From Candidatus Hydrothermarchaeum profundi (GTDB taxonomy: Archaea; Hydrothermarchaeota; Hydrothermarchaeia; Hydrothermarchaeales; Hydrothermarchaeaceae): a stretch of 64,000 bases of DNA. The stretch lies in contig MTMF02000009.1 of assembly GCA_002011125.2 (NCBI GenBank), positions 968,989 through 1,032,988 of the forward strand, in the 5' to 3' direction. The position numbers and the translations under genes were made by a program. Of the stretch, positions 46,558-63,532 are shown piece by piece. The number at the start of each line of letters is the position of its first letter. Positions within the stretch are counted from its first letter, which is position 1. The notes below the pieces were generated by a model. It was not told the origin of the DNA and searched no databases. It saw only the letters and a program-made list of their open reading frames with translations.

Positions 46558-46612
46558 CCGAAATCTTTATATACTACTTAACGATAGTTAAGTGAATTTT
46601 AACGATTGTTAA
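46558..46612 (+). promoter_or_regulatory. aprA promoter (BRE/TATA) with two tandem TTAAC-N4-GTTAA operators
   Basis: CCGAAA-TC-TTTATATA (46558-46573), then TTAACGATAGTTAA (46578-46591) and TTAACGATTGTTAA (46599-46612), 21 bp apart. Confidence 0.7.
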
Positions 46613-48336
46613 GGAGTGTTTGTAAATTGGAAATCGATACCGACCTTCTCATTATAGGTGGTGGCACAGCAGGTTGCCTTGCAGCAGTTGAAGCTAAAGA
46701 GCTAGATCCAGATTTAAAAGTCACAATTCTAGAGAAAGCACATATAGAAAGAAGTGGATGTCTCGCAGGCGGGATAAATGCAATTAATGTATACATCCAT
46801 GAAGGAGAGTCTCCTGAAAGTTATGTAAGGTGGGCACGCTGGTATGCCATGGGTTTACTAAGAGAAGACCTAGCCTTAACTATGGCTAGAGAGATAAACA
46901 AGGCTATAGAGAAGGTCGAGAAGTGGGGCTTACCTATACCCAAGGATGATAAGGGCCGATATCTAAGAAGAGGGCGGTGGGGGATTCATGTTTTTGGAGA
47001 GTCTATAAAACCCATTCTCGCGAAGGCAGTAAAAAATGCTGAGGTGGATGTATATAATAGAGTAGTGGTAACAAATCTTCTGACTAAAAGAGAAAAGGTT
47101 ATTGGAGCGGTAGGGTTTGGAGTTAGAAATGGAGACTTCTACCTGGTAAGAGCGAAAGCTACTATCGTTGCAACAGGCGGAGCAGCAGGACTTTATAAAC
47201 CTAAAAATGATGGTGAAGCCCATCATAAAATATGGTATTCGCCTTTTAACACAGGAACAGGTTACGCGGTGGGGATCAGAGCTGGTGCTGAGATGACAAG
47301 CTTTGAAATGAGGTTTAATGCTATTCGTATAAAAGATGTAAACGCGCCGATTGGCACCATAGCTGTTGGTTTTAATGCACCGGTCATTAATTCTAAAGGT
47401 GAAAAATTTATGCAGAAAAACTATGCGCACTTAGGAGGCGAGGCAGCGCCAACTCCACTGCGAGTACATGGGCCAATGGAAGAAATAAGAAATGGTAGAG
47501 GACCATGTTATATAGATACTCGGAGGTTAAATGATAAAGACTTGAGACGTTTGAAAGAAGAATATCTCGACGAATATCCCACACTAGTATTGTATCTCGC
47601 TTCAAACGGTATAGATCTTAAAAATAGGTTTCTTGAGATCTACGGCACAGACCCATATATTGTTGGTGGGCATTGTAACGCGGGGTATTGGATAAATACT
47701 GATCGATCAACTACGTTAGAAGGTCTATATGCAATTGGAGATGTTGCTGGTGGAGCTAGCAGTAAGTTCGTGGGAGGTTGCTTCGCTGAGGGTATTATAG
47801 CAGCTCGCGCAGCTGTTGATTACATATGTAACAAAAATGCTTTGGAAGAAGTAGATCCAGAACTGGTAGATAAAGAGAGGTATAGAACTTTTGCTCCGCT
47901 ATGGAGATATAAAGAAGGAAGACATGGGCCTACTCCTAAGGAAATGGAACTAAGATTGCAAAAAGTTATGGATGAGTATGTGGGCGGTGTACATCAGTTT
48001 TACTTGATAACTGAAAAAGGGCTAGAAATAGCTAAAATTGAGATTAAGGCACTTAAAGAGCAAGCAGAGAATCTTATTGCAAGAGACCTTCATGAACTCA
48101 TGCTTGCGCATGAGTTAATAGATAGGTTAGATGTTGCTGAAGTGCTTATTCATCATCTCCTATATCGTAAAGAGACGAGATGGCCGGGATTCCAGGATCG
48201 GGTAGAGTATCCACATTTAGACGACAAGAATTGGCTGGTATTCGTAAACTCTAGAAAGAATCCTAAGACCGGAGAAATAGAGGTTTTTACAAGGCCTTAT
48301 GAGCAAATTGTCCCAGGGGATAGGTACAATCCATGA
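46606..48336 (+). CDS. aprA: adenylylsulfate reductase alpha subunit (short AprA-like flavoprotein)
   Basis: LIIGGGTAG, LEKA.IERSG, NAIN, ATGG, WYSPFNTG, EMRF, GGH, R.ETRWPG. Real start may be TTG 46627 after GGAG. Confidence 0.9.
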   Translation: MLRSVCKLEIDTDLLIIGGGTAGCLAAVEAKELDPDLKVTILEKAHIERSGCLAGGINAINVYIHEGESPESYVRWARWYAMGLLREDLALTMAREINKAIEKVEKWGLPIPKDDKGRYLRRGRWGIHVFGESIKPILAKAVKNAEVDVYNRVVVTNLLTKREKVIGAVGFGVRNGDFYLVRAKATIVATGGAAGLYKPKNDGEAHHKIWYSPFNTGTGYAVGIRAGAEMTSFEMRFNAIRIKDVNAPIGTIAVGFNAPVINSKGEKFMQKNYAHLGGEAAPTPLRVHGPMEEIRNGRGPCYIDTRRLNDKDLRRLKEEYLDEYPTLVLYLASNGIDLKNRFLEIYGTDPYIVGGHCNAGYWINTDRSTTLEGLYAIGDVAGGASSKFVGGCFAEGIIAARAAVDYICNKNALEEVDPELVDKERYRTFAPLWRYKEGRHGPTPKEMELRLQKVMDEYVGGVHQFYLITEKGLEIAKIEIKALKEQAENLIARDLHELMLAHELIDRLDVAEVLIHHLLYRKETRWPGFQDRVEYPHLDDKNWLVFVNSRKNPKTGEIEVFTRPYEQIVPGDRYNP

Positions 48337-48342
48337 GGTGAT

Positions 48343-48660
48343 ATGTTGACCATCGTGATACACCATGAAAAATGCACTGGGTGCAAAGGCATGAAAGAAC
48401 CTCTATGTGTAAAGCTCTGCCCAGGAGACCTTATAATGATAAAAAATGAGAAGTCCTTCATCCGAGACCCCGGAGATTGTTGGGATTGTATGGCATGCGT
48501 AAAATCATGCCCTTACGGCGCTATTGAAACCAAGCTTCCTTATGAGCTGGGTTATAAAGATGCGCATTTGATTCCCAAGAGAAAAGGGAAGATAATAGTC
48601 TGGGAGCTTGTTTACTCAGACGGCCGAAGGGAAGTATTTGAGAGGCAGGTGAGATTATGA
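48343..48660 (+). CDS. aprB: adenylylsulfate reductase beta subunit (2x[4Fe-4S])
   Basis: CTGC.....PLCVKLCPGD and CWDCMACVKSCP, the AprB-type cluster spacing; lacks the long C-terminal tail. Confidence 0.88.
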   Translation: MLTIVIHHEKCTGCKGMKEPLCVKLCPGDLIMIKNEKSFIRDPGDCWDCMACVKSCPYGAIETKLPYELGYKDAHLIPKRKGKIIVWELVYSDGRREVFERQVRL

Positions 48661-50450
48661 GGCAAACTCCAGTTGGAGGCAGATTAGTTAACAGAGTATT
48701 AAAGGGCAGAGATAAAGTGAGAGCTAAAGAAGCAGCGGCTAACCTCCCAAAAATCAAGATTGAAAATGATATTATAGTCACGCTTGAGATGATAGCTACT
48801 GGAGTGTTGAGTCCGTTAGAAGGATTTCAGGGATACGAAGATTATAGAAGCATATTAGAAGATAAAAGACTTGCTGACGGTACACCCTGGACAATCCCCC
48901 AAATATTCGCTCCGAATATAGAGTCAACTAAGAGTCTAGACGAGATTAAGGAAGGGGAGGATATAGCTCTTATTGGAAAATCAGGAGAACCCATTGCTTT
49001 ACTACATTTGGAGGAGAAGTTTACTATCGATAGAAAAGAAATGGTAGAATATATTTTTGGTACGAGTGATAAATCTCACCCAGGAGTTAATTATGTTTAT
49101 AGGAAGGGAGAAAGGGCTTTAGCAGGAAAGATAGATCTAATACACAGACCTTCATGGGGCCCATTTGAGAAATATAGACTTGAGCCTAAAGATACTTGGG
49201 AAATATTTAAGGAAAGAAACTATGAAACAGTAGTAGGATTTCAAACAGCTAACCCTCTCCATCGGGGCCATGAGTATTTGCAGAAATGTGCATTGGAAAT
49301 ATTTGATGGGATATTTATTAACCCAATAGTTGAAACCACCCGACGGGCGTATTTTAGAAATGAATTCAGGATAAAAGCATACGAGGAGGCTATCAAGGTC
49401 TACTATCCGGAAGATAGAGTAGTTTTTGCACCGCTCAGACTAATAATGCAATATGCTGGACCAAGAGAAGCAGTAATGCATGCCTTGATAAGGAGAAACT
49501 ACGGATGCACGCATTTTATTTTGGGAAGAGATCATGCAGGATACAAAGATTATTACCCGAAATATGCATCTCAAAAAATATTTAAAGAGTTTGAAGAGGA
49601 TGAGCTTGGGATAACCCCCTTATTCTTCCGAGAAGCCTTTTATTGCGCTCGTTGCGCTAATCTAGCTACAGAGAAGACATGTCCTCATGGTAAAGAATAC
49701 CATATTACTATGAGCGCCTCTATAATCCAGGATATTTTTAGGTATGGCTATCTCCCTCCAAAAGAAGTAATGCGGCCAGAAGTTTCACAGATAGCAATAC
49801 AGGGAATCCAGCCAAAAGGGCTTGATGAGACTGGACATGCATTAGAATCTCCTGGAGCAGCAATAAAAGGCATGTTTCCATTCTATATAACCCACTACAG
49901 GCTTGGAGGATATAAAAGGGACAGACCGCTAGACGTTAATTCCCTTACAGTTGCGGATATCCGCAGGGCGCTTCTTGATGTAAGGATTAACGCGAGTAAG
50001 ATATACGAAGAAATCTATGAGACGATTGCTTATTATTTCGATATATCCCGGGATTTGGTTGCTAATCGTAGAGGAGAGGCTTTAGAACAGTCGGTGGATA
50101 GGCAAATTAGATTGATTAAAACTTTGAAGGAAAAAGTTGAGGGTGCACCAGAATCTGTACAAGACCCATTTATGTATCAAGATAAAAACGAGGCCAAAAA
50201 AGAATTAGATATAGCTCAAAAAATATTAAACGACCTTTTCAGGTATAGGCCCAAGGATTTTGGTATAAGAATCTGGAATCCACTAGAATATGAGAGGTAT
50301 CGACATTCTTCGATTGCAACCTCTTCAGTTTATCCGAATATAATCTACGATAAAATGAACCGGGCTAGCATAGAGGACGATGCGAAACCTAATGCATCTA
50401 TCGCCGTCGCTGAAGCAGATTGGAATTATGAAAAGAGGGTAAGAAAATGA
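48657..50450 (+). CDS. sat: sulfate adenylyltransferase-like protein (QTAN variant) with ~215-aa C-terminal extension
   Basis: SPLEGF, FQTANPLHRGHEY, YAGPREA..HA.IR.NYGCTHFI.GRDHAG, Zn site CARC..CPH, RPEV. Confidence 0.85.
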   Translation: MRQTPVGGRLVNRVLKGRDKVRAKEAAANLPKIKIENDIIVTLEMIATGVLSPLEGFQGYEDYRSILEDKRLADGTPWTIPQIFAPNIESTKSLDEIKEGEDIALIGKSGEPIALLHLEEKFTIDRKEMVEYIFGTSDKSHPGVNYVYRKGERALAGKIDLIHRPSWGPFEKYRLEPKDTWEIFKERNYETVVGFQTANPLHRGHEYLQKCALEIFDGIFINPIVETTRRAYFRNEFRIKAYEEAIKVYYPEDRVVFAPLRLIMQYAGPREAVMHALIRRNYGCTHFILGRDHAGYKDYYPKYASQKIFKEFEEDELGITPLFFREAFYCARCANLATEKTCPHGKEYHITMSASIIQDIFRYGYLPPKEVMRPEVSQIAIQGIQPKGLDETGHALESPGAAIKGMFPFYITHYRLGGYKRDRPLDVNSLTVADIRRALLDVRINASKIYEEIYETIAYYFDISRDLVANRRGEALEQSVDRQIRLIKTLKEKVEGAPESVQDPFMYQDKNEAKKELDIAQKILNDLFRYRPKDFGIRIWNPLEYERYRHSSIATSSVYPNIIYDKMNRASIEDDAKPNASIAVAEADWNYEKRVRK

Positions 50451-51307
50451 TAGATCACGAGAATATAAGGATGGAAATCCAACAAAAGCAAGAGGGATAT
50501 GGAGTATTGAGAGCACCAACGTTTGGTAGGATAACATCTCAACAGCTTAAAACGCTAGCTAAAATCTCTAGAGAATTTGGTGATGGCTACGCATTACTCA
50601 CCATGAGGAAAGGATTCGAGATACCTTGGATAAATAGAGAGAATTTTGGGAAAGCCCTCTCAGAGATTGAAAAAACGGGTCTAAAAGTAGGGTCTAGTGG
50701 GAATACAGTAAGATCCATACTTCCCTGTGCTGGTCAGGACAGGTGTCCTTTTGACATACTGGAGGTAGGTGTGTTAACCAAGAAAATAAGAAATGAACAC
50801 TATGGCAGACCTATGCCTATGAAATTTAATATAACTCTTTGTGGTTGTCCGAACTATTGTACTCATCCATATCTGAGTGATATAGGGATAATAGGCAGAG
50901 CACGCCCTAGAGTGAACGAGGACAAATGTATAGGTTGTGGTCAATGTGTAAGACTCTGCCGCGGAGATGATGGTGGAGCACTACGTCAAGTAGATACGAA
51001 TGCACCTGAAATTGATTACGAAAAGTGTATAGAGTGTGGGTGGTGTATAAAAAACTGCCCTACTGGTGCAATGGAAGCAGAGAAGCAAGGATGTAGTATA
51101 TTGGTTGGAGGCAAAGGCGGAGCAAATCCAAAACTTGGTGTAGAGTTAATTAGAATAATATCTATAGAAAAGGTAGGCCGTGTTTTAGAGAGAATCGTTC
51201 AATATACGGAGGAATATTCTAGTAAAGGTGAAAGATTGGCTGATGTAATTGAAAAATATTCGTTTGAACACTTTAAGAATTATGTGTTAGGTGAAATCGA
51301 TGACTAA
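50447..51307 (+). CDS. siroheme sulfite/nitrite reductase-like subunit 1 (Dsr-LP/AsrC-like) with 2x[4Fe-4S] ferredoxin insert
   Basis: CAGQDRC (CX5C) and GCPNYC (CX3C) siroheme-cluster ligands; CIGCGQCVRLC and CIECGWCIKNCP; VGGKGG; GERL. Confidence 0.88.
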   Translation: MIDHENIRMEIQQKQEGYGVLRAPTFGRITSQQLKTLAKISREFGDGYALLTMRKGFEIPWINRENFGKALSEIEKTGLKVGSSGNTVRSILPCAGQDRCPFDILEVGVLTKKIRNEHYGRPMPMKFNITLCGCPNYCTHPYLSDIGIIGRARPRVNEDKCIGCGQCVRLCRGDDGGALRQVDTNAPEIDYEKCIECGWCIKNCPTGAMEAEKQGCSILVGGKGGANPKLGVELIRIISIEKVGRVLERIVQYTEEYSSKGERLADVIEKYSFEHFKNYVLGEIDD

Positions 51308-52001
51308 AGTTAGAGGAAGAATTGGCTTATTAGCTCAAAGGCAGAAAGATTACGTAACCATCAGGCTAAGGATACCTTTGGGAAAACTTACGGCAGAGCA
51401 GATGGAGGGAATATCCCAGATCATTGAAGAATATGGAGACGGCTATGCTATACCGACTATTCGTAAAAGCCTAGAAATACCTTGGGTCAGATTTGAGGAT
51501 TCTAATAAAGTTCTAAAAGAGTTAAGGAAAATGGGTCTCTCGGCAGGCTCATGCGGGAGAAAAGTGAGGACAATAGTGGCATGTGCGGGATTAGGACATT
51601 GCATCCATTCTCATAGAAATCTAGAGAAAATGTACTATAAGCTCCTCGGAAATTATTACATGAAAGATACTCCCACTAAATTTAAAATATCCCTCTCCGG
51701 GTGTCACCTTGCTTGTAACCATCCTTATATTAATGACTTTGGAATTATTGCCACTGAAGATGGCTTTTCAATCCTTGTAGGTGGAAAGGGTGGTAGACAC
51801 CCCCAGTTTGGAAAGCTGATAGTTGAAGGAGTATCTGAGGAAGAGGTATTCAATATTCTTGATAAAACCTTGGAATATTTCAGAAAGTATGCTCAAGGCA
51901 GAGAGAGGATTTATGAAGTTATAAAAAGAAATGGCGTAGACCATTTTAGAGGATACGTGTTAGAGGGGGTGAAAGCTTGGCCAAGAGATTCGAAGAATTA
52001 A
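51300..52001 (+). CDS. siroheme sulfite/nitrite reductase-like subunit 2 (no ferredoxin insert)
   Basis: IRLRIPLG, VRTIVACAGLGHC (CX5C), PTKFKI, SGCHLAC (CX3C), VGGKGG. ATG at 51300 after AGGTGA. Confidence 0.88.
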   Translation: MTKVRGRIGLLAQRQKDYVTIRLRIPLGKLTAEQMEGISQIIEEYGDGYAIPTIRKSLEIPWVRFEDSNKVLKELRKMGLSAGSCGRKVRTIVACAGLGHCIHSHRNLEKMYYKLLGNYYMKDTPTKFKISLSGCHLACNHPYINDFGIIATEDGFSILVGGKGGRHPQFGKLIVEGVSEEEVFNILDKTLEYFRKYAQGRERIYEVIKRNGVDHFRGYVLEGVKAWPRDSKN

Positions 52002-53026
52002 AAAAAGAAGTGATAGACAAAGGTTTTTGTGTACACTGTGGTGCTTGTAGCGCATTTTGCAATCGCATAAAGCTTAATGCGTCTCCACAGCTTGTCGGGA
52101 AATGTGTGGAGAGCTGTTCATCTCCTTATGGAACTGATGGGGTATGTTATGAGCATTGTCCAATGGTTAAAAGCTTTGATGAAAAACATATCTTTCAAAG
52201 GAATACTTCCGATCCATTAGGGATATATATTTCATTAAAGTCAGCTCGTGCTCATGATAATAGTCTTAACGGTGTTCAGGATGGAGGTGTTGCAACAGCC
52301 TTGCTTAAGGCAGCATTTGAAGATGGAGAGATAGATGCAGCTATCGTGGTAGGTAGAGATGAGCTATGGAGAAGTCAACCTAAAATAGCGTGGTCGGTTA
52401 AAGACTTAATAGGTACTTCTGGGTCTAAATACACTGAAACGCCTGTTATAGAACTCGTAGGTAAACTTTCTCGAGAAGGCGCAAGTAGTGTCGCAGTTGT
52501 CGCTGTGCCATGTCAAATACAGGCGCTCCGGAATTTAGAATACGGGCTTCTCTATCCAAATGGGTTCTCCCCTTACTCAGACATGATGCTGTACACGATA
52601 GGCTTGTTCTGTTCAGGTGTATTCAACTATAAAGAACTTGTAAATAGACTTGATGTAGACTTGAAATATGTTGATAAAATGGACATAAAGGATAGTAAAT
52701 TTAAAGTGGAAGGGAAAATTACCAAAACTTTGCCTCTTAGTAGAGTAAAAAAAGCTTTATTACCCGCATGCAAATATTGCAGGGACTACACCGCAAGACT
52801 CGCTGACATATCTTTAGGCTCTGTAGGGTCCCCAAAAGGTTGGACTACAGTAATCGTTAGAAATCCAAATGGAAGCTGGCTGTTAACAAATGCTAAAAAT
52901 TTAGGATTAATAGAGGTGAAGCGAGGTCTAAGTGAAAATGTACTAAGAACTCATGTTGATAAAAGAATAAAAAATGTGAGTAAGGAATGTATGAAAGCTA
53001 ATGAGATTCCGCCTTCATTTAAGTAA
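51977..53026 (+). CDS. F420-interacting FrhB/FpoF-family flavoprotein with N-terminal ferredoxin (Fsr N-half-like)
   Basis: CVHCGACSAFC...CYEHCP, QDGGVATALL, GSKY, PCQIQALR, IGLFC, CKYC.DY...ADIS.GSVGSP.GWTTVIVR. Confidence 0.9.
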   Translation: MAKRFEELKKEVIDKGFCVHCGACSAFCNRIKLNASPQLVGKCVESCSSPYGTDGVCYEHCPMVKSFDEKHIFQRNTSDPLGIYISLKSARAHDNSLNGVQDGGVATALLKAAFEDGEIDAAIVVGRDELWRSQPKIAWSVKDLIGTSGSKYTETPVIELVGKLSREGASSVAVVAVPCQIQALRNLEYGLLYPNGFSPYSDMMLYTIGLFCSGVFNYKELVNRLDVDLKYVDKMDIKDSKFKVEGKITKTLPLSRVKKALLPACKYCRDYTARLADISLGSVGSPKGWTTVIVRNPNGSWLLTNAKNLGLIEVKRGLSENVLRTHVDKRIKNVSKECMKANEIPPSFK

Positions 53027-53375
53027 AACAGGCATCGCAATCGTTTGGCACTATGCTGGCTTCTTTATGCGGGCCGCAAAGAGTTTTATCTGATTTTGCA
53101 GCTTCACATATTCTACATATCTCTTTATATGGGTTATGTTTTTCTCCAGAGATTATCTTATCAGCAAACTCAGATATAGCGGCTTTAGCATTTTCTTTGA
53201 GTTCAATTTTTTTCCCACGCTTTCCTTTCAAATATTGAGAAACAGCCGCTTCTGTAACCCCCATTACTGATGCCACTTCCTTCTGACTCATCCCGCGGCT
53301 GATTAGTTCTTTTGCTAGGTCTGATTTTATTGCCGGTAAAACATACCATACTACTAATTCACAGGGAGCTTTCAT
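53019..53375 (-). CDS. HTH transcriptional regulator with Cys-rich C-terminus (COG2522-like)
   Basis: PCE.....LPAI...LAKEL...GMSQKEVA..MGVT.AAVSQYL.GKRG; ICRIC...C..H....C.AC. Confidence 0.85.
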   Translation of the reverse strand: MKAPCELVVWYVLPAIKSDLAKELISRGMSQKEVASVMGVTEAAVSQYLKGKRGKKIELKENAKAAISEFADKIISGEKHNPYKEICRICEAAKSDKTLCGPHKEASIVPNDCDACFT

Positions 53376-53555: not shown

Positions 53556-53831
53556 ATGTTATATGAGATTTCTACCATAGCAGCTCTTGGAAACGTACTT
53601 CTCTTACTAATACTCCTCTACATTTTTATTCAAAACTATAGAAAAATACCTTCTAGTTTTACATTTGGTCTGGTTATTTTTGCATCCATTTTATTAGTTG
53701 ATTCCCTGTTTTCCTGTTCTGCATTCCTTCCAAGTCTTATTACACAGTTTATCCCTCACCAGATTCATACTCTTCCGCCTGTTCTAGAATTTATAGCGCT
53801 AGTAGTGCTGATAAGTATAGTAATAAAGTGA
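53556..53831 (+). CDS. small 3-TM membrane protein (paralog of 63245..63523)
   Basis: MLYEI...LGN..LL...YIF.Q.YRK..S.FT.GL..FA.ILL is shared with the minus-strand copy. Confidence 0.8.
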   Translation: MLYEISTIAALGNVLLLLILLYIFIQNYRKIPSSFTFGLVIFASILLVDSLFSCSAFLPSLITQFIPHQIHTLPPVLEFIALVVLISIVIK

Positions 53832-53838
53832 CGGTATT

Positions 53839-54321
53839 ATGAAACCAAAGAAAATAATAACCATATCAGTCGTGGTGGTTCTTCTCCTATTTGTATACTA
53901 CTCAATGAATGCTGCTCCTCTAATAAGCGATGAAAAGTATACTTACATTAGCGGTTTGAGATGGTACAATACCTTCGAAGAAGGTCAAAGGGTTGCGTTA
54001 GAGCAAAATAAACCTATCTTTATTTATTTCTGGGCGATATGGTGCACATACTGCGAAAAATTACATACTGAAGTTTATCCAAACCCGGAAATCAATAGGA
54101 TCTTAAAAGAAGACTATGTACTTGTAGCGGTGGATCTAGATACTAACAAAAAAGATGCAGCTAGATTTGGAGCAACGTATCCTCCAAAGCTTGTGTTCAT
54201 TACGCCAGATGGTGAAATAATAACTGAAATTGGAGGTTATGTTCCAGCGGAATCTCTACTTCCTGTTCTACAAAATGTAAAAGCCTTCTATCAAAATAGA
54301 ATTAGTTCCGGTGGTGGTTAA
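53839..54321 (+). CDS. membrane-anchored thioredoxin-fold protein (CcmG/SoxW-like)
   Basis: N-terminal TM, WAIWCTYC, cis-Pro region YPP..F..PDGE.I..I.GY. Confidence 0.88.
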   Translation: MKPKKIITISVVVVLLLFVYYSMNAAPLISDEKYTYISGLRWYNTFEEGQRVALEQNKPIFIYFWAIWCTYCEKLHTEVYPNPEINRILKEDYVLVAVDLDTNKKDAARFGATYPPKLVFITPDGEIITEIGGYVPAESLLPVLQNVKAFYQNRISSGGG

Positions 54322-56667
54322 GTGAATCTAGGTAATCTATTGCTATATAGTGCATTTTCCATCGGGTCTTTGATTATTTTATTATTATTGATAAATCTAA
54401 TCAAGAACATTCAAGTTGAAAGATATGTTCAATGGCTAGTGAGAGCTTTTTTTATGATATTACTCGCGGATATGAGTCTGCTTACTTACTATTTCATCGT
54501 GAGCGATATTTCAGTAAATTACGTATGGACATTTACGAGTAAGTATCTCCCACTTTTATACAAATTATCTGGCGTATTGGCTGGACAACAAGGAACACTA
54601 TTATTCTGGGCATTTTTAATAAGTATAAGTGCTCTATGGATTAATGAGAGAAAAGAGTATAGCGATTTTATAAAAAAAGTCCAGATAATTGTATTGTTAC
54701 TAGGATTATTCTTTATTGCTTTAACGATCAAAGAATCACCTTTTATCACGATATATGATCTCTATCCAGACTTACCGAGAGATTTCCTTCCAGAAGACGG
54801 CGCTGGACTTAATCCCCTTCTAATCGACCCTTGGATGGCTGTTCATCCTCCGGTAATTTTTATAGCTTATGCAACTATGACTATTCCTTTTGCAGTCGCC
54901 GTAGTTTACCTTATTAAGTCTATAAAAGAGGACACCTTAAAAGTGTATAGTGAATGGAGTCATATTGTGACCTTCTGGTGCAGGATTTCTTGGCTTTTTC
55001 TTACATGGGGGATCGCGGTCGGCGGTTTTTGGGCCTATAAAGTACTCGGTTGGGGCGGTTACTGGGCTTGGGATCCTGTGGAAACATCTTCTCTTATCCC
55101 GTGGATCCTTTTGACAGGAGCTCTCCACGCTCTATCCGAAAATAGGAAAAAAAAGGAGAGTTATAATATATTAGCTCCAGTGCTGGTTGCGTTGTCTTTT
55201 TCACTAGTGGTATACGCTACATTAGTTACTAGAAGTGGATTTTTTGAATCCGTGCATGCCTTCAGCACCGGGCAAACAGGATTTTATCTATTAATTTTGG
55301 TTGTAGTGAGCATACTGGTTTCTCTCATTTTAGGAAGTATAAAGTACGTTAAGAGAGTTGATAGGCACGTAGAAGATATTGATAATGGAGAGATTACTCT
55401 GGTGAATAGGACAAATATATTCTATCTTGCAATATTATTGTTTGTAATATTAACTTTTATATCCTTCTGGGGGATCACATTTCCGGCGTTGACAAAACTA
55501 GCTATGGGGAAAAAAATTGGTATGGGTATTTCGTTTTTTAATATTTGGAGTTATCCTTTTATAATATTGCTAATGCTTTTCGGCGGACTAGGGCTAAATT
55601 ACAAGCATTCTGAAAAAAAGAAGCAACTACGAGTATTCGGTTTATTTATCCTCATTACTTTGATAGCGGCTGTAATTAAGCCCTCAGAATCATGGAAAAT
55701 TGTAGAATATTCCGCCATCATCAATCCCGAAAAGCCATTTCTATATAGGCTGATTGGCGGTGCCTCCCCCTTAAGCATAATACCCCCTTCTATTTACCTG
55801 ACTTGGGGTGCGAGTGAAAGGCTTTTGCGAAGATTTAAGAGTAAGTCCATGGAGCTAAAAATAAAGGAAGTAGGGATTTTTATCATACATGTCGGAGTTG
55901 TTTTAATCATAGCTGGTTCTGTAGTTAGTACTCTTTTCGATAAAGAGTTCAGTACTAGAGTCACTATAGGAAATTCTGAGCTTGTACGGATTGAAGGGAC
56001 CCCTTATGCGGTTAAACTTCTTGGCTTTGACACAGAGGTAGTATATATAGAAGATTCTGCGAGTAATGATATACCGGGGGATAGTCTAGATGAATTTTAC
56101 ACGAAAATCGGGGAAGAGGATGTCTATTTAGTGCATGGTAAGGTAGAGGAAACTGTACAAACGGAACATAATACTTATATGAAACTTGTAGATAACGGCA
56201 GAGAGTTATGGGTCGCTACTAATAGGGTAGACATCCCTAAGGGTGCCCTAGTTGTACTATCTGGAAATGTGATGTTTGATTTTGCAAGTCCAACTTTAAA
56301 CAGAGTTTTCGATATAATACTTTTCGCTCCGCATGTAGAGGTATATAGTATGGAGCCTGAAAGATATTCGACAACAGAACTAGTTAAAGTAGCGGTATAC
56401 AATGGCCATAACAAAATAGGGGAGGGTACTGCTAAGTCGATTACCTATAAAAATGGAAATGTCAACAAGGTAATGATTGATAGATCATTGACTAAGGATG
56501 TTTATGTTATCTACACAGGAAAGAACGGCCAAGAAATACCTTTAACAATTAAGATTAAGCCGTACGTAAGCTGGACTTGGGTAGGTGTGGTGTTGTTTTC
56601 GGTGGGCATACTTTTTATATTATTTTTTGATCCGGTTGTTAAAGAGAGGAGGTATCAAGCTGAATAG
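54322..56667 (+). CDS. ccmF: cytochrome c heme lyase CcmF with inserted OB-fold (NrfJ-like) domain
   Basis: AGQQGTLLFW, GLNPLL.DPWM..HPP, WAY..LGWGGYWAWDPVE, VTRSG...SVHAF, HVG, KP...W.W.G. Confidence 0.92.
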   Translation: MNLGNLLLYSAFSIGSLIILLLLINLIKNIQVERYVQWLVRAFFMILLADMSLLTYYFIVSDISVNYVWTFTSKYLPLLYKLSGVLAGQQGTLLFWAFLISISALWINERKEYSDFIKKVQIIVLLLGLFFIALTIKESPFITIYDLYPDLPRDFLPEDGAGLNPLLIDPWMAVHPPVIFIAYATMTIPFAVAVVYLIKSIKEDTLKVYSEWSHIVTFWCRISWLFLTWGIAVGGFWAYKVLGWGGYWAWDPVETSSLIPWILLTGALHALSENRKKKESYNILAPVLVALSFSLVVYATLVTRSGFFESVHAFSTGQTGFYLLILVVVSILVSLILGSIKYVKRVDRHVEDIDNGEITLVNRTNIFYLAILLFVILTFISFWGITFPALTKLAMGKKIGMGISFFNIWSYPFIILLMLFGGLGLNYKHSEKKKQLRVFGLFILITLIAAVIKPSESWKIVEYSAIINPEKPFLYRLIGGASPLSIIPPSIYLTWGASERLLRRFKSKSMELKIKEVGIFIIHVGVVLIIAGSVVSTLFDKEFSTRVTIGNSELVRIEGTPYAVKLLGFDTEVVYIEDSASNDIPGDSLDEFYTKIGEEDVYLVHGKVEETVQTEHNTYMKLVDNGRELWVATNRVDIPKGALVVLSGNVMFDFASPTLNRVFDIILFAPHVEVYSMEPERYSTTELVKVAVYNGHNKIGEGTAKSITYKNGNVNKVMIDRSLTKDVYVIYTGKNGQEIPLTIKIKPYVSWTWVGVVLFSVGILFILFFDPVVKERRYQAE

Positions 56668-57382
56668 TGAGCCATCATTTGTCTTAGCATTCCTTGCTGG
56701 ACTCTTAACGGTTACTACCCCTTGTGTCATCCCAATCCTCCCCCCAATGTTAGCCGGATCTATCGGTCATAAGCTTAGACCTTTTTTTATTGTATTAGGA
56801 AGCTCCATAACGTTTACCTTAATGGGGGGAGCTTTCGCAGCAATAGGCCTCTTAGCGTCAGGGGTTACAGAATATATGAGACTATTTTTTATTTTCTTTA
56901 TCATAGCTTTTGGAGCAGTAATGGTGGATGAAGATATCAATAAAGTATATACGAAATACGCAACAGTTGTAGTCAATAGATTATTAAGTCGAAAAGGAAG
57001 TAATTCCTCAAGAAACTTTCACCCACTAGTAGGAGCTTTTGTGTTAGGGCTTTCTCTGGGTATAGTGTGGATTCCATGCGTCGGCCCTATATTGGGGGCT
57101 GTACTTGCATATGCTTCAACAACAGCTAACTTAGCTAAGGGGTCTCTTTTGTTGATGACGTATTCTTTTGGGCTTGGACTTCCGATGCTTGGGATAGCTT
57201 ACGGGGGCAAATATGCTTCTGTAAAAGTAGAATGGGTTAAGGTCCATTCTATTACGATAAGAAAGATTGCTGGATGGGTAATTATCCTCACAGGGATAGC
57301 TATGCTCTTTGGTCTTGATAGACTTGTACAAGCTGGTCTTACTCCGTATTTCCCGAGTTTTGAAGAGAGGTTGCTAAAATGA
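56660..57382 (+). CDS. ccdA: CcdA / DsbD transmembrane thiol-disulfide transporter
   Basis: PCVIPILP and W.PCVGPILG; about 6 TM. Start uncertain (CTG 56660 after GGAGGT, or TTG 56636; track start 56585). Confidence 0.88.
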   Translation: MNSEPSFVLAFLAGLLTVTTPCVIPILPPMLAGSIGHKLRPFFIVLGSSITFTLMGGAFAAIGLLASGVTEYMRLFFIFFIIAFGAVMVDEDINKVYTKYATVVVNRLLSRKGSNSSRNFHPLVGAFVLGLSLGIVWIPCVGPILGAVLAYASTTANLAKGSLLLMTYSFGLGLPMLGIAYGGKYASVKVEWVKVHSITIRKIAGWVIILTGIAMLFGLDRLVQAGLTPYFPSFEERLLK

Positions 57383-58392
57383 GTGAAAAGGGAGACCGCT
57401 TTAAGATAAATTGGGGGCATAGGTATCTTATAATTGTGGCAGGGCTTTTCTTTATTGCTGGATTCTCATCAGGGTATGTGTTCTTTAGTGATGGAGAAAA
57501 TGAGAAAATTTGTCCATTTAGTTTTAATATAACCCTGTCTAATGAACTCTTTGCTGATGTCATTGGTGAAAAGGCAGCGAGTTATGTAGATGAAAAATTT
57601 CTAAGGCCGCAAGGAGCTTCAGGGGAACTGGTAAAAGTTGAGAGCTATGGGGATAGTCTCTATAGAGTTATAATACGTGCTACTAAGGAGGGTGTTACTC
57701 AGACGATTTCGTTACTCGCTACAAGAGATGGTAAGTTAATACTACTAGGTGAGGGCGGAGGCGTGGTCGAGATTCCAGAATCCTATGAAGCAAACCTCAC
57801 TTTTAGGGAGGTAGCTAAAACTGATGCTATCTACATAACCTCAGGATTGGAAATAAGACCAGAGATGGCCGCATATATTCGGGGATCAAAAGATGCTCCT
57901 ATAACTTTTGTAGAATTCAATGATTTTCAGTGTCCATTTTGTAAAAGGTTCAGGGATCAGAGTTTAGATCTTATTCTAACAAAATATGAAGGAAAAATCC
58001 GTTATGTTCTTTTAGATTTCCCTATTACTTCAATTCATCCTCAAGCACCTCTGGCACATATTGCCGCTAGGTGTGCGGGTGAACAAGGAAAATACTTCGA
58101 ATATCATAACAAGCTCTTTGCTAAACAAGAAAGTTGGTCTAGGATGCCTCCAGATTCTGTAGAAGAGATAAATGAGTTTGAAAGCTACGCAGTTGAGCTT
58201 GGATTAGATGAGGTGAAGTTTTCTCAATGCCTAAACTCAAGAAAGTATGAGAACGCGGTATTATCAAACATGGAGATAGGAGCTAGAGCGGGTGTTACAG
58301 GAACTCCAACTTTCTTTATAAACGGTCAGAAAGTCGGTGGAGCGCAACCTTATCAAGTCTTCGAATCTGTCATAGAATCTCAACTAAGTTAG
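57379..58392 (+). CDS. membrane-anchored DsbA-family oxidoreductase
   Basis: N-terminal TM, G..DAPIT.VEF.DFQCPFC, FP...HP.A..A..AARCA.EQGK, GVTGTPTFFING. Confidence 0.92.
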   Translation: MSEKGDRFKINWGHRYLIIVAGLFFIAGFSSGYVFFSDGENEKICPFSFNITLSNELFADVIGEKAASYVDEKFLRPQGASGELVKVESYGDSLYRVIIRATKEGVTQTISLLATRDGKLILLGEGGGVVEIPESYEANLTFREVAKTDAIYITSGLEIRPEMAAYIRGSKDAPITFVEFNDFQCPFCKRFRDQSLDLILTKYEGKIRYVLLDFPITSIHPQAPLAHIAARCAGEQGKYFEYHNKLFAKQESWSRMPPDSVEEINEFESYAVELGLDEVKFSQCLNSRKYENAVLSNMEIGARAGVTGTPTFFINGQKVGGAQPYQVFESVIESQLS

Positions 58393-58435
58393 GATATTTA
58401 GAAAAAAATCAAAATTTCATAAACATAAATCACCG

Positions 58436-58470
58436 GAAATTTGGGTAAAAGTTGGTGTAAATTCTGGAAA
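58436..58470 (+). promoter_or_regulatory. phased AATTTGG-like direct repeats upstream of the DUF1573 operon
   Basis: AATTTGG (58438), AAGTTGG (58449), AATTCTGG (58460) at an 11-bp period. The 11-mer GAAATTTGGGT is identical to 53497-53507; TTAAATAA follows. Confidence 0.5.
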
Positions 58471-58489
58471 ATGTTCTTAAATAATCATT

Positions 58490-59332
58490 TTGAGAGAAAA
58501 ACTAGTGGTCGGGACTGATTTGGCTTCAGAGTCGGAAAAAAAAGGAAGGAGAAGGTATATAATATTTCTTCTGGTATCCTTTTTGATAGGGAGTATAGGA
58601 GGATTAGTTCTATTCACTTATTTAAGTCCGGATACCCTTAAAACTTCCGCTTCTGGTAAAGTATATGCGGAATCTCAGCCTGTAGGAAGTATGGTAAGTT
58701 ATACCAATCCGGAGGAAATTTATAAGCTCTTTATCTGTCCTTGCTGTGGTAGTACAATAGACGCATTATGTTGTGAGTCAGCTATAGAACGAAAAGCCTA
58801 TGTTGACGGACTCTTAGATGCGGGATTAGATAAGACAGAGATAATGGTTAAGATGACTTCTCGCTATGGATTGGATTCTCTCGCAAGCGATTCATTGAAA
58901 ACCGAGGTTAGGGAGATTCTAATCGAAAGAGCCCCCGAAGATAGGCCACAGCTAGTAATTTACCCGAAAGCCTATGACTTGGGAAATGTGAGTGTTTCAG
59001 GCGGAGTTGTCACAACTCTTGTCCACTTAACAAACAAGGGAAAAACAAATCTGGTGATTGATGATATGGAGACTTCTTGTGGTTGTACTTCTGCTTCTAT
59101 TGTTTATGATGGTGTTGAGGGTCCTCTTTTTAATATGAGGGAGCATGGTAATAATCCTGTGGGGTGGAGTGTTAGTATTAGGCCGGGTGATACTGCTATC
59201 TTGAAGGTTATTTATGATCCGATGGTGCACCCTGATCTCAGAGGAACGGTAACTAGGCTCGTCACTATATATTCTAACGACCCAATTGACCCACAGACGA
59301 CTTTTAAATTGAGATTGAATCAGGTCGATTAA
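58490..59332 (+). CDS. CcmH-like domain fused to a DUF1573 (Ig-like, SCGC) domain
   Basis: TM; FICPCCGSTID..CC..A.ERK.YV..LL.AG..K.EI...M..RYG resembles the CcmH/CycL N-domain; then N.G...L.I....TSCGCT...I.PG.T..L.V.YD. Confidence 0.7.
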   Translation: MREKLVVGTDLASESEKKGRRRYIIFLLVSFLIGSIGGLVLFTYLSPDTLKTSASGKVYAESQPVGSMVSYTNPEEIYKLFICPCCGSTIDALCCESAIERKAYVDGLLDAGLDKTEIMVKMTSRYGLDSLASDSLKTEVREILIERAPEDRPQLVIYPKAYDLGNVSVSGGVVTTLVHLTNKGKTNLVIDDMETSCGCTSASIVYDGVEGPLFNMREHGNNPVGWSVSIRPGDTAILKVIYDPMVHPDLRGTVTRLVTIYSNDPIDPQTTFKLRLNQVD

Positions 59333-59837
59333 AGTGTCGAAATTAACAAAACACCAGGCTAAGGAACTCAAAAAGAAGAAGAAAAATAAAAAAATTGAGG
59401 CACAGCGGCGTAAAATTCAATCACAAAGAAAGATTAGGCGACTGACTAAATACATAGGCATTATCGTGATATTCTCTGTAGCTCTTCTGATAGTTAAGGG
59501 ATCAATGGGTGCTGTGGAAGGAGCGCCTTCGTTACAGGTATCGCCTGAGAGTATAAACTTGGGAGACGTAAGCGTATCCGGAGGCCCGGTAGTTGTTGGT
59601 TTTGAGATAAAAAATACTGGGGCTAGTGATCTGGTGATTGATGATATGGAGACTTCTTGTGGTTGTACTTCTGCTTCTATTGTTTATGATGGTGTTGAGG
59701 GTCCTCTTTTTAATATGAGGGAGCATGGTAATAATCCTGTGGGGTGGAGTGTTAGTATTAGGCCGGGTGATACTGCTATCTTGAAGGTTATTTATGATCC
59801 GATGGTGCACCCTGATCTCAGAGGAACGGTAACTAGG
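59049..59837 (+). repeat. perfect 209-bp direct repeat (59049-59257 = 59629-59837)
   Basis: Base-for-base identical copies 580 bp apart, in-frame within two adjacent DUF1573 genes. Confidence 0.95.
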
Positions 59838-59912
59838 GTTGTTACCCTTTATACGAATGATCCCACATCGAAAGTTAAGGACGTATATATACGGATAAAT
59901 CAAGTGGACTGA
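59334..59912 (+). CDS. membrane-anchored DUF1573 domain protein
   Basis: Basic N-terminus, TM, TSCGCT Ig-like domain sharing the 209-bp repeat. Confidence 0.85.
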   Translation: MSKLTKHQAKELKKKKKNKKIEAQRRKIQSQRKIRRLTKYIGIIVIFSVALLIVKGSMGAVEGAPSLQVSPESINLGDVSVSGGPVVVGFEIKNTGASDLVIDDMETSCGCTSASIVYDGVEGPLFNMREHGNNPVGWSVSIRPGDTAILKVIYDPMVHPDLRGTVTRVVTLYTNDPTSKVKDVYIRINQVD

Positions 59913-59916
59913 GATA

Positions 59917-60339
59917 ATGACTAAGATGATAATTTTTCTAAGTTTGGTGTCTATGTCTATAATAGGCGGGGCAATATTTTATCAGTATTTTAAATTAGAG
60001 AGTCCAGTTTCACCGCCAGTAATTGAGATTATACCTGCCTCATATGATTTTGGTGATATCCCTTACAAGAAAGTCGAAACAACATTTAAAATTAAAAACC
60101 TGGGTGGAGAGAATCTAGAGATTCTTGGTGTAAGTACATCCTGTGGATGTACCAAAGCATATGCCAAGGAAAATATTATACCACCGGGTGGAGAAACTGA
60201 GTTGATTGTAACATTTGATCCAAATCTTATGGATTATAAAGTAGTAGGGAAGGTATTCAGAGCGGTTTTTGTTTCCAGTAATGATCCTCTTAATGAGGAA
60301 GTCAGAATAGACATCACAGCTAACGTTGTGGAGGGGTAA
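59917..60339 (+). CDS. DUF1573 domain protein
   Basis: TM/signal, YDFGDI, F.IKN.G...L.I.GVSTSCGCT, IPPGGE..L.VTFD, SNDP. Confidence 0.88.
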   Translation: MTKMIIFLSLVSMSIIGGAIFYQYFKLESPVSPPVIEIIPASYDFGDIPYKKVETTFKIKNLGGENLEILGVSTSCGCTKAYAKENIIPPGGETELIVTFDPNLMDYKVVGKVFRAVFVSSNDPLNEEVRIDITANVVEG

Positions 60340-60346
60340 TTTTATT

Positions 60347-61561
60347 ATGAAAAAACAGGGCCTTATCGTATTGCTATTTATTTTCTTAGTTTTCCCACTA
60401 GCATCTGCTTATAATTCATCTGGTAAGGCGGTTATCTATTACAACGAGGCGTGTAGCGATTGTACAATCTATATTAAAAAAAATTTAGTTGTAATTCTAA
60501 GAGACTATGGTATTACCGATATACAGCTTAAGGACTACATAAATAACGATAATTACCGGAAAGAATTGGTTGAATTTAATAAAAGAAATGGCATACCTAT
60601 GGAGCTCCAATCGCATCTTACAGCTGTAGTAAATGATAGAATCATACTCGAAGGACATGTTCCAGAAAGTATAATTAGAGACCTGCTTTCTCAGCAAGAG
60701 TTTGATAAGGTCTTGGTATACCAAGATGAGATGAAGAAAGAGGCAAGAACTTATAAAGTTTGGGCTTTCTCTGGAGAAATTAAAGAATATCCCATACGAA
60801 CACCAATAAGTGAGTATATAGACTGGTTTAAATCGGAAGGCTCAAATAGGCTTCAAAATTCGCCTGTTTTATCTAATTTTGTGTCTAGTTCTCTTCTTCC
60901 GTTGGTGATTGTTACCGGACTTTTAGATGGAATTAATCCTTGTGCGTTTGCAGTTTTATTGTTTTTCATAGCATATCTTTTTACTATTAAGAGAGCAAGG
61001 GTCAGTGTTATAAAAATGGGAGTAGTCTATATAGCGGCGATTTATCTTGCTTATTTTCTGATAGGTATCGGTATAATGAAGGCTTTGGTAATTACAGGGC
61101 AGCCTCATCTAATGGCTAAGATAGGAGCTATTCTTATTATTATTTTAGGATTTATAAATATCAAAGACTACTTCAAGCCAGAGCTATTCCCGATACATCT
61201 TAAAATCCCTCATCAAGCGGTACCCCACATAAAGGAATGGGCATACAAAGCTACCTTTCCTGCAGCCTCAATTATGGGCTTCCTTGTGGGTCTCTGTACT
61301 TTCCCCTGTTCGGGGGGAATCTATGTTGCCATTATCGGATTATTATCAGCAAAAGCCACATATTTCAATGGCATAGCATATCTACTACTCTATAATCTTA
61401 TGTTTGTTATGCCTCTTGTAGTGATATTATTAGTGACATCGAGTGCGTCTAGAACAGTTAAACTTAAAGAGTGGAGAGATCGTAATGCGAGGCTGATGAA
61501 GTTAGAATTTGGAGTTGCTATGATTCTGATAGGATTTGTGATACTAAAGTGGTTTGTATAG
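60347..61561 (+). CDS. glutaredoxin-like (CxxC) domain fused to a CcdA/DsbD-type TM domain
   Basis: Signal peptide, YYNEACSDC, then GLLDGINPCAFAVL and CTFPCSGGIY. ATG at 60347 after GGAGGGG. Confidence 0.85.
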   Translation: MKKQGLIVLLFIFLVFPLASAYNSSGKAVIYYNEACSDCTIYIKKNLVVILRDYGITDIQLKDYINNDNYRKELVEFNKRNGIPMELQSHLTAVVNDRIILEGHVPESIIRDLLSQQEFDKVLVYQDEMKKEARTYKVWAFSGEIKEYPIRTPISEYIDWFKSEGSNRLQNSPVLSNFVSSSLLPLVIVTGLLDGINPCAFAVLLFFIAYLFTIKRARVSVIKMGVVYIAAIYLAYFLIGIGIMKALVITGQPHLMAKIGAILIIILGFINIKDYFKPELFPIHLKIPHQAVPHIKEWAYKATFPAASIMGFLVGLCTFPCSGGIYVAIIGLLSAKATYFNGIAYLLLYNLMFVMPLVVILLVTSSASRTVKLKEWRDRNARLMKLEFGVAMILIGFVILKWFV

Positions 61562-61590
61562 ATTAACAAAATTTGATATGGCGGACCCTA

Positions 61591-62031
61591 TTACTTTTTT
61601 AGCCAATCACTAATATAGACTTTATATGTTCTTCCAAGACGTTCACGTGAGATTATCCCTTTCTTCTCTAGATTAAGTAAAAGAGCGCTGACTTTTGATT
61701 TCGAGAAGCCAGTTCTAAATCGCAGCGAGTCTTGAGTGACTCCTTCCGAGTTTCTAATTATATCAAGTAGAAGAATCTCATCTTCTGTTAAAGCTCTCTG
61801 CAATATATCTATACTACGGTCCATCCCAAACTCGCTTGGTCTTGCCCAGAGGTAAAATAGGAATCCAATACCCATCCCGATTACAAAGGAAAGAGTCATC
61901 CTATAATGCATTATTCTACTACTCTCTTCAAAAAACAGAGAAAAGATTGCATCTATACCAAAAAAGATGATGAATATTAAGAGCACTGTAGATAATATTC
62001 GCTCGTTCTCTGTAGAAGGTTTTCTCACCAT
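61591..62031 (-). CDS. membrane-anchored winged-helix protein (COG2512-like)
   Basis: Two TM helices, then LTEDE...L......G.TQ..L...TGFSKSKVS..L..LEKKGII.RE..GRT..V. Confidence 0.8.
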   Translation of the reverse strand: MVRKPSTENERILSTVLLIFIIFFGIDAIFSLFFEESSRIMHYRMTLSFVIGMGIGFLFYLWARPSEFGMDRSIDILQRALTEDEILLLDIIRNSEGVTQDSLRFRTGFSKSKVSALLLNLEKKGIISRERLGRTYKVYISDWLKK

Positions 62032-62038
62032 TTTGTCA

Positions 62039-62737: not shown

Positions 62738-62777
62738 ATAAACCTATAAATCGGGTTAACGAGATGCAATTTAGAAT

Positions 62778-63230
62778 TTATGCTCTTGTAACTTGTTTTA
62801 ATACTTGTAGGAACTCACTTGCGCTCACATAGCCGGGTATTCTAGTTATCTCTTCGCCGTTAGGTGTTAAGAATATTTCTGCTGGAGGTGCTCCTACTCC
62901 AAATCTAGCTGCTAGGTCTCCTTGTTCATCTATATTGATCGCTACTAATACAAGATTATCCTTCATAATAGCGTTTACTTCAGGATTCACATAAGTGTCC
63001 TTTTCTAACTGTTCGCAATATTTACACCATGTAGCCCAGATGTAAACCATAATTGGTTTACCAGTGCTCGACGCTTGTTCTATTCCTGCCTCTAGCGAGT
63101 TGAGCCAAGTAAGTCCGCTTATATATGTTTGGCCTCCCTGGCTCACAACAGGCATATCTCTAGGAGAGAGTACTACAAACAAAAATATTAACGCTAATCC
63201 TCCAACCAATATATATTTTTCAGTTCGCAT
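62778..63230 (-). CDS. membrane-anchored thioredoxin-fold protein (paralog of 53839..54321)
   Basis: TYISGL.W, WATWCKYC, Y.NPE.N, ARFG...PP...F.TP.GE.IT.I.GYV. Confidence 0.88.
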   Translation of the reverse strand: MRTEKYILVGGLALIFLFVVLSPRDMPVVSQGGQTYISGLTWLNSLEAGIEQASSTGKPIMVYIWATWCKYCEQLEKDTYVNPEVNAIMKDNLVLVAINIDEQGDLAARFGVGAPPAEIFLTPNGEEITRIPGYVSASEFLQVLKQVTRA

Positions 63231-63244
63231 GGCTCTAGATTTTT

Positions 63245-63523: not shown

Positions 63524-63532
63524 ATTTTCAAC

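Follow-up and report, generated by a model that had tools for sequence, protein, structure and literature searches.

The closest described relatives of the protein studied here are the ATP sulfurylases (Sat, EC 2.7.7.4). In the solved enzymes the Gln and Arg of a QxRN motif and the NH of the Ala in GRDHAG bind the sulfate oxygens, the QxRN Arg is held by the Asp of a GxxKxxD loop upon loop closure, and the Arg of SGTxxR binds pyrophosphate (PPi) (described in the accessible part of PMC3779200). The Sat motifs are also given in the excerpt available of PMC6607087, and docking reported in the accessible text of PMC11697783 puts two Args at the sulfate. The QxRN Arg is treated as fixed in ATP sulfurylases, and a clade without it offers a natural experiment on sulfate binding and on whether the Arg can shift to a different loop. 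Mutation of this Arg reportedly kills canonical Sats. Here we describe such a clade, seen from the gene sat* in a stretch of 64,000 nucleotides of Candidatus Hydrothermarchaeum profundi (contig MTMF02000009.1, positions 968,989 to 1,032,988; the whole stretch is referred to as the window). Its product, Sat*, has QTAN in place of QxRN and a long C-terminal tail. The comparisons given below make it probable that Sat* is a working ATP sulfurylase whose active site has been rewired, and that it supplies adenosine 5'-phosphosulfate (APS) to a likely assimilatory operon.

The open reading frame of sat* (48657..50450, + strand) encodes 597 residues, and its start is overlapped over 4 nt by an aprB-like gene. 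The codons CAA ACA GCT AAC (49242..49253, +) read Q196-T-A-N199, as an earlier note on this DNA had observed. The gene is the single PF01747 gene of the source genome (G000, 97.65% complete). Sat* matches the PUA-like domain PF14306 (PUA_2) over residues 4–163 (146.6 bits) and the catalytic domain PF01747 over residues 172–380 (267.6 bits), and lies above the curated cut-offs of NF003166 (455 bits, cut-off 387) and TIGR00339 (338.7, cut-off 322.95). An AlphaFold 2 (AF2) model, obtained with 82 sequences (predicted local distance difference test, pLDDT, 81; predicted template-modelling score, pTM, 0.79), shows the Sat fold, with a Z score of 37.0 and a root-mean-square deviation (rmsd) of 1.6 Å over 342 residues relative to T. 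thermophilus 1v47_B; Foldseek matched the model to 8a8d with an E value of 5e-44. The possibility that the GCT codon is a sequencing error was excluded, because contigs from two runs (X1 and X2, both possibly the source of this DNA) span sat* with 0 differences and QTAN is present in 110 distinct homologous sequences.

Compared with the Sats of M. thermolithotrophicus (8a8d/8a8g) and T. thermophilus (1v47), Sat* has the same three-domain fold (TM score 0.92–0.95, depending on the target) at 37–41% identity. HxxH (HRGH, residues 202–205), GRDHAG (residues 290–295; 49524..49541, +), the Gln, Thr and Asn of QxRN, and the Zn site C330-x2-C333-x8-C342-P-H344 (49644..49688, +; in the alignment it falls in the region of the Zn site of 8a8d and 1v47) are held in common, and the view that these elements are intact was thus borne out. 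In contrast, the QxRN Arg is replaced by Ala, GxxKxxD by ETTRRAY, and the Args of MRYAGP and SGTxxR by Gln, while Sat* adds invariant E226, R229, R234, R261 and R362 as well as a helical tail of 170 residues. A more distant likeness is to TmcAL of B. subtilis (5y0n), an acetyladenylate synthase (as stated in the accessible text of PMC10221552) with the same HIGH nucleotidyltransferase fold (Z 9.0, rmsd 3.8 Å over 180 residues). At 13% identity, and with TmcAL acting on tRNA and having neither PUA domain nor tail, this is an analogy and not a family-level relationship.

Conservation profiles were made from 22 canonical, 110 QTAN, 163 ITGAN and 1 WTGAN sequences, from which only identical sequences had been removed; the canonical sample is small (22 proteins, three PDB alignments and nine loci). 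Position 198 is Ala in all 274 tailed sequences and Arg in 100% of the 22 canonical ones. Besides R198, all tailed proteins have lost D232 (to Tyr or Phe; Gln in WTGAN) and R265, and QTAN and ITGAN have both gained E226, R234, R261, R332, R362 and K369. Changes specific to QTAN are K229 to Arg (100%) and R358 to Gln (96%), with Q196 retained (100%); the sequences with ITGAN or WTGAN (together xTGAN) have instead replaced Q196 by Ile or Trp and inserted one Gly. The mobile loop, E226-T-T-R229-R-A-Y232-F-R234 in the window gene (49332..49358, +), has E226, R229 and R234 at 100% and Y232 at 99% in QTAN, against Gly (100%), Lys (95%) and Asp (95%) in the canonical GxxKxxD. In the segment R261...Q265 (49437..49451, +) the Arg of MRYAGP is gone and a new one stands four residues before it: R261 is found in 100% of QTAN and ITGAN versus Pro in 95% of canonical sequences, and position 265 is Arg in 100% of canonical sequences versus Gln (68%, as in the window gene) or Asn (26%). 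Similarly, in S353-A-S-I-I-Q358...R362 (49713..49742, +) the Arg of SGTxxR, at 100% in canonical and ITGAN proteins, has become Gln, and a new Arg (R362, 99% in QTAN) lies one turn further on. SASII for SGT had also been noted; it holds for the window gene, to which SAS is nearly private, and not for the family, as SGT is kept in 95% of the 110 QTAN sequences.

HRGH, T197, N199, GRDHAG and R373 are conserved at 99–100%, with HRGH and GRDHAG at 100% in QTAN and ITGAN alike. The motifs for ATP and PPi (HRGH, T197, N199 and GRDHAG) are intact, and two of the three sulfate contacts are kept, those of Gln196 and of the Ala294 position. Sat* lacks the QxRN Arg, the GxxKxxD loop and the SGTxxR Arg, and by these three motifs it stands apart from the plain members of the family, although its context is that of a Sat. 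Because two of the three lost Args are paired with a new invariant one four residues off (265/261 and 358/362), the profiles suggest relocation of Arg rather than loss. The idea that the missing Arg is supplied from elsewhere fits the data best, since R229, R234, R261 and R362 are conserved at 99–100% in the QTAN branch. In the mechanism that we propose, Sat* would convert ATP and sulfate to APS and PPi; the sulfate contact would pass to R229 in the mobile loop (alternatively to R234 or R261), and E226 would hold the substitute Arg in position.

The rewired site and the tail occur together. A search with residues 340–597 yielded 83 proteins, every one a Sat with a tail and all of them Arg-less (29 QTAN and 54 ITGAN); a search with the catalytic domain gave 7997 matches, of which the best 120 were examined. 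The 166 proteins surveyed comprised 142 tailed Arg-less proteins, 22 tail-less proteins with QTRN, one partial sequence with QTAN and one N-truncated sequence. As regards the co-occurrence that the earlier note proposed to survey, all 142 tailed proteins with a readable motif are Arg-less and the 22 tail-less ones keep the Arg. In the small sample of canonical Sats QTAN was not found to be common, the single partial sequence being the only tail-less case, and the extension matched no known domain. Loci encoding the tail number 269 in genomes and 182 in metagenomes, and 80 of each were analysed. In a midpoint-rooted tree of 75 selected sequences (221 of the 296 aligned sequences were left out) the tailed proteins form one branch (support 100/100), which splits into xTGAN (100/98) and QTAN (88/93), with a stem of 0.84 substitutions per site. 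Besides Hydrothermarchaeales and further archaea, the named hosts are Acidobacteriota, Omnitrophota and a large number of Bacillota. QTAN is thus the mark of a tailed clade and not a one-off. Titles and abstracts of the literature searched do not describe an Arg-less or tailed Sat; the supplements of PMC10504309 may list such sequences.

The frame continues for 221 residues beyond RPEV (V376), and consists of a conserved, family-specific folded domain (residues ~381–549; 49797..50303, +; present in 83 homologues and in the AF2 model) followed by 47 unconserved residues that are disordered in the model (50304..50447, +; pLDDT ~30). The domain is mostly helical in the model, with three long helices (432–461, 471–496 and 510–526), and carries the motifs QGIQPKG, YQDKxE...EL and RxWN; R443, Q483, K493, Q508, E512, W540 and N541 are invariant. 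Sat-APS kinase fusions (Aquifex 2gks, Penicillium 1i2d, yeast 1g8f) have a C-terminal domain of similar length and a total of ~550–600 residues. The Sat* tail differs in being mainly helical and in having no PF01583 match, and Sat* scores 263 with NF004040 against a cut-off of 669, which agrees with the earlier description of a long helical extension that is not an APS kinase; PF01583 was also not matched elsewhere in the source genome. The tail itself gave 0 Pfam or NCBIfam matches. A profile-free search of 1.84 billion representatives returned 45 matches, of which 43 were family-like by length and alignment and two were of a repeat type (one of these was inspected). A fold search yielded generic helical hairpins (best Z 9.1, from a poor single-sequence model with pLDDT 49), and two Atlas look-ups named no family, the TM score being at most 0.44 in one of them; the absence of a named family does not show that the fold is new. 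Overall, the tail is likely to be structural or allosteric and no second enzyme of the sulfate pathway.

Several more specific proposals for the tail were considered and rejected. Nine close homologues carry a fused TusA domain (PF01206) after the tail, where the window gene has its 47 unrelated residues; position and a weak BLAST extension suggested a decayed TusA, but a profile of the nine fused domains gave no score. A role as a substitute for pyrophosphatase (PPase) was dismissed, as a genome with a canonical Sat (G353) is likewise without a family I PPase; Bacillota of the B. subtilis type are expected to have a family II PPase. Covariation between tail and core was dominated by the split between QTAN and xTGAN (effective number of sequences 56).

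The sat* gene lies in an operon aprA-aprB-sat*-sir-sir-frhB, and the same genes are found at four other loci (L002, L003, L004 and L092). The AprA-like protein (46606..48336, +) is an FAD-containing alpha subunit of the APS/3'-phospho-APS (PAPS) reductase type (NF005331, 721 bits, cut-off 557), and AprB (48343..48660, +) is a Fer4 protein with 2x[4Fe-4S], for which TIGR02060 (aprB) is the best NCBIfam model, below its cut-off. Downstream are a siroheme subunit of the sulfite/nitrite reductase type with a ferredoxin insert (50447..51307, +; PF03460, PF01077, Fer4; AsrC TIGR02912 below cut-off) and intact Cx5C...GCx3C, a second such subunit (51291..52001, +; PF03460, PF01077; Cys motif intact), and an FrhB-like F420-oxidising subunit (51977..53026, +; PF04422, PF04432). 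From their domains, and from the architecture of F420-dependent sulfite reductase (Fsr) as given in the accessible part of PMC6286981, we infer that the last three genes encode a split Fsr-like reductase. In M. thermolithotrophicus, the route consists of ATP sulfurylase, APS kinase, the PAPS reductase 8a8o and Fsr (according to the text available of PMC10322725); Sat, an AprAB-like reductase and an Fsr-like module are shared with this route, whereas the source genome has no APS kinase, the Fsr-like module is split over three genes, and Sat is rewired and tailed. The split reductase genes (50447–53026 in the window) were also observed at L002, L003, L004, L092, L191 and L192; two distinct siroheme subunits (37–44% identical) occur in the window and at L002 and may form a heterodimer, and the other loci have one.

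The AprA-like protein scores below the cut-off for dissimilatory AprA (TIGR02061, 487 versus 641.75), and its nearest solved structure is 8a8o, the M. thermolithotrophicus PAPS reductase (E 3e-187). The catalytic residues that correspond in the alignment to N74, W234, R265, R317 and H398 of A. fulgidus are retained; the position of Gln145 is Gly. The substrate loop RGRWGIHVFGES (46960–47000, residues ~119–132) is intermediate between EGQWQ (APS type) and RGKRS (PAPS type), and the positions of Lys120, Arg121 and Ser122, which specify PAPS, are R-W-G. Profile searches of the source genome revealed no further Sat. They also revealed neither an APS kinase nor CysD, for which reason APS is the likely substrate of the AprAB-like enzyme. 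Because of the missing APS kinase, the flavoenzyme is proposed to reduce APS directly to sulfite, which the split siroheme reductase with its FrhB-like subunit would convert to sulfide with F420H2; in the relatives with a fused TusA, this domain probably carries the sulfur onward. PPi would be removed by the membrane PPase (C9:5799-7760), the only clear PPase of the genome, in which neither a family I nor an above-cut-off family II enzyme was detected.

The presence of sat, apr and dsr genes has led to the proposal that members of the phylum reduce sulfate (PMC6775978, PMC10504309 and bioRxiv 2023.06.27.546762, in the parts available). The source genome also contains two isolated gene pairs with PF01077 (C9:741962-744216 and C9:126236-128435), which are dsrAB-like by sequence, and a dsrC at C9:1759533, all far from the operon. 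A search confined to the operon revealed no QmoABC or AprM. As AprA misses the dissimilatory cut-off and the operon has its own Fsr-like genes, an assimilatory role of the operon is likely. The only Sat and AprA of the genome therefore reside in an assimilatory-looking operon, a point that bears on the proposals of sulfate respiration in Hydrothermarchaeota (PMC6775978, as far as its accessible text goes). One of the dsrAB-like pairs adjoins nitric-oxide-reductase-like genes, and five free-standing TusA genes are present in the genome.

A Sat was found in 14 of 41 genomes of relatives. Three of them (G353, G362 and G364) have an operon aprA-aprB-sat-sir-frhB in which the slot of sat* holds a canonical Sat of 392–397 residues, with QTRN and without a tail. 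Two complete AprAs beside such canonical Sats are 60–71% identical to the AprAs of the operons with a tailed Sat, and share the loop RGRWNxKINGE with those of L003, L004 and L092; G353, at 89% completeness, is also without an APS kinase. The 47 typed QTAN loci comprise four apr operons, four sat*-(tauE)-mec-cysK-thrC-moaD operons, two genes directly behind an APS-type cysH, two behind moeB/thrC-like genes, 34 in an uninformative typA/TPR setting and one that is too short. Outside the acidobacterial typA/TPR setting, 12 of 13 loci are in sulfur clusters, the two moeB/thrC cases being the weakest. In the mec-cysK group (L007, L093, L095 and L096; sat*-(tauE)-mec-cysK-thrC-moaD(-moeB)) a cysteine pathway with a ubiquitin-like sulfur carrier has the tailed Sat at its head. 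In one acidobacterial class the variant occurs in 12 of 101 genomes, and all 12 are without a second PF01747 gene; a PF01507 match of CysH length is present in 10 of them (one partial) and one of CysD length in none (type judged by match length, with NCBIfam confirmation for G019).

Several observations weigh against an active ATP sulfurylase in an assimilatory operon. The lost Arg forms hydrogen bonds with sulfate in solved Sats (accessible part of PMC3779200) and is present in 100% of the 22 canonical sequences, and three Args in all have gone. The xTGAN branch shares the Arg-to-Ala change, E226, Y232, R234 and R261, yet 26 of its genomes have no sulfate pathway; the shared rewiring is therefore also compatible with a function outside sulfate metabolism. 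The 12 acidobacterial genomes are related to one another and metagenome-assembled, and two genomes with the variant (G013 and G021) also carry a canonical Sat-CysC fusion, G013 a CysDN pair as well. The AprAs beside canonical Sats form a branch of their own, so that the swap may have gone either way and both enzymes could have shifted. Furthermore, the loop RGRWGIHVFGES of the window AprA departs from the RGRWNxKINGE shared by the five relatives and is without the PAPS-excluding Gln, and the dsrAB-like pairs and dsrC make a dissimilatory role possible.

Two alternatives keep Sat* active and change its substrate. QTAN proteins could adenylate a sulfur oxyanion that is bulkier than sulfate or carries less charge (thiosulfate, sulfamate or a small sulfonate), and the AprAB-like enzyme would reduce the resulting adenylate. 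Replacement of Arg198 by Ala and of Asp232 by Tyr would open and de-charge the sulfate site and leave a cavity for an extra group, TusA, a carrier of sulfane sulfur, is fused in nine close homologues, and the AprA loop in the window is unusual. We nevertheless regard such a substrate as unlikely, and the suggestion of the earlier note that the operon handles something other than sulfate is weakened for the window gene, because in relatives the slot is occupied by a canonical Sat, next to an AprA that has the loop of L003, L004 and L092. Moreover, all three CysH partners tested are above the APS-reductase cut-off (TIGR02055), another source of APS was not found in 12 of 12 acidobacterial genomes, and adenylation of thiosulfate would have no obvious energetic use. 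The other alternative, that the whole tailed clade adenylates a carboxylate such as acetate and provides an acyl donor (for instance for O-acetylserine) in sulfur operons, draws on the rewiring and tail common to both branches of one clade (100/100), the acetate and monocarboxylate context of xTGAN (see below), cysK next to sat* at four loci, and the fold shared with TmcAL. It is improbable for the QTAN branch, given the apr operons, the cysH-sat* pairs and the 10 acidobacterial genomes that would be left without a source of APS; Gln196 is 100% kept in QTAN and replaced by Ile or Trp in xTGAN, and a cre-like site precedes 0 of 39 QTAN genes (in lineages that are not expected to use CcpA).

A Sat* with little or no catalytic activity, acting as a scaffold or channel for AprAB (an option also raised in the earlier note) or as a nucleotide sensor, would account for the loss of three canonical Args and for the coupling of its translation to aprB through the 4-nt overlap. 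This is very improbable in view of the near-invariance of HRGH, T197, N199, GRDHAG and R373 and of its being the only Sat in the genome, and a partnership with AprAB fits poorly, as 47 of the 51 genomes tested keep the tail but have no AprA of this type. We give scarcely any weight to an artefact, whether from erroneous sequencing or from recent decay of the gene: no conservation is seen in the last 47 residues and SAS is almost confined to this gene, but the contigs of the two runs agree, the 110 homologues share QTAN, and the tail is encoded at the 269 genome and 182 metagenome loci. APS synthesis by a rewired Sat* thus remains our preferred explanation for the window gene.

The sister branch was analysed in 50 genomes out of the 80 genome loci, 39 of them from Bacillota. 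In 12 of these 39 a canonical Sat is encoded elsewhere, always together with CysC and in 11 cases with CysH; one genome has a broken set, and 26 have the variant alone. In the latter 26 genomes no CysH, CysC, AprA or full-length sulfite reductase was found (seven have short PF01077 matches); as these downstream enzymes are missing, sulfate assimilation cannot be the role of the variant in them. In G045 (C1:3066762-3067943) canonical sat and cysC are interrupted by stops and ITGAN is kept, as if sulfate activation had been lost. A match with at most one mismatch to the consensus of the catabolite-responsive element (cre) of CcpA was present upstream of 15 of 55 xTGAN genes (some of them close kin) versus 6 of 443 other genes at the same loci, and shuffled sequences gave 0.16 matches with a maximum of 2. 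The match also occurs at seven of 30 metagenome xTGAN loci. No shared upstream motif other than cre was found in xTGAN. A similar cre site, TTGAAAGCGTTTTAT, and the cre of acsA are reported in the accessible part of PMC3217849.

Transporters adjoin 17 of 97 xTGAN loci: 12 ActP/MctC-like symporters (below both cut-offs and probably one inherited arrangement) and five SfMCT lactate transporters (above cut-off). One locus (L029) has an acetate uptake transporter and another (L067) an acetate-CoA ligase just upstream; altogether 19 of 97 loci adjoin monocarboxylate transporters or acetyl-CoA synthetase, and the other 78 have varied or truncated neighbours, with no background rate for comparison. 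Isocitrate lyase, a marker of the glyoxylate shunt, is present in 27 of 41 variant genomes versus 68 of 160 others (Fisher p 0.009, uncorrected for kinship), a weak association, as 14 of the 41 are without it. Adenylation of a small carboxylate is the simplest mechanism, because Gln196 has become Ile and the TmcAL fold performs such a reaction. A change of substrate has good support in the xTGAN branch, whose members are likely to adenylate a carboxylate. The fuller scheme, in which they are CcpA-repressed, acetate-type carboxylate adenylyltransferases unrelated to Acs and the window QTAN protein is an Arg-less intermediate that still handles sulfate, is tentative and perhaps rather less than an even bet. 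If true, there would be an acetate-activating enzyme unrelated to Acs, and one branch would have left sulfur metabolism after rewiring of the anion site and gain of a helical domain. A reading of xTGAN as a response to sulfur starvation was rejected, since the 'cysteine synthase' cluster on which it drew mixed CysK (L065, several genes away) with threonine dehydratase (L061).

The hosts of xTGAN are Bacillaceae and Planococcaceae, including cultured type strains (Sporosarcina, Virgibacillus, Oceanobacillus and Siminovitchia), so that a possibly new carboxylate-activating enzyme is directly assayable. The proteins are above the NCBI cut-offs for sulfate adenylyltransferase and are annotated as such everywhere; sulfate activation assigned on the basis of 'sat' is likely to be wrong in 26 of 39 Bacillota genomes. 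Some Bacillota have two ITGAN copies (G150:C70, 3899-7816, in tandem; G191, G213, G273 and G296), one copy being broken in G223. A WTGAN form with GRDYAG is a paralogue in five Hydrothermarchaeales genomes, in four of them beside canonical or QTAN Sats, which points to a second function. These proteins have 540–542 residues with a shortened tail hairpin (L085:4757-6385, L086, L193:4931-6559, L194:5398-7020 and L195:798-2420), and in three genomes the gene adjoins one that is presumably HemD-like. At L082:5348-6910 and L087:3072-4483 a member of the PF01507 family that the cut-offs place in neither CysD nor CysH is paired with an apparent phosphodiesterase- or sulfatase-like gene; at L082 this pair adjoins an epimerase-like gene.

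A sigma-70 promoter scan was at chance level, the sigma-70 model not being suited to archaea. A gene for a small helix-turn-helix protein with a Cys-rich end is convergent to the operon in the window (53019-53375, - strand) and at L002 (6040-6405). Further downstream, 53556-63820 contains a cluster of thioredoxin-like, CcmF-like and apparently CcdA/DsbA-like membrane redox genes, in which the near-duplicate genes 58490-59332 and 59334-59912 have a long identical stretch in common.

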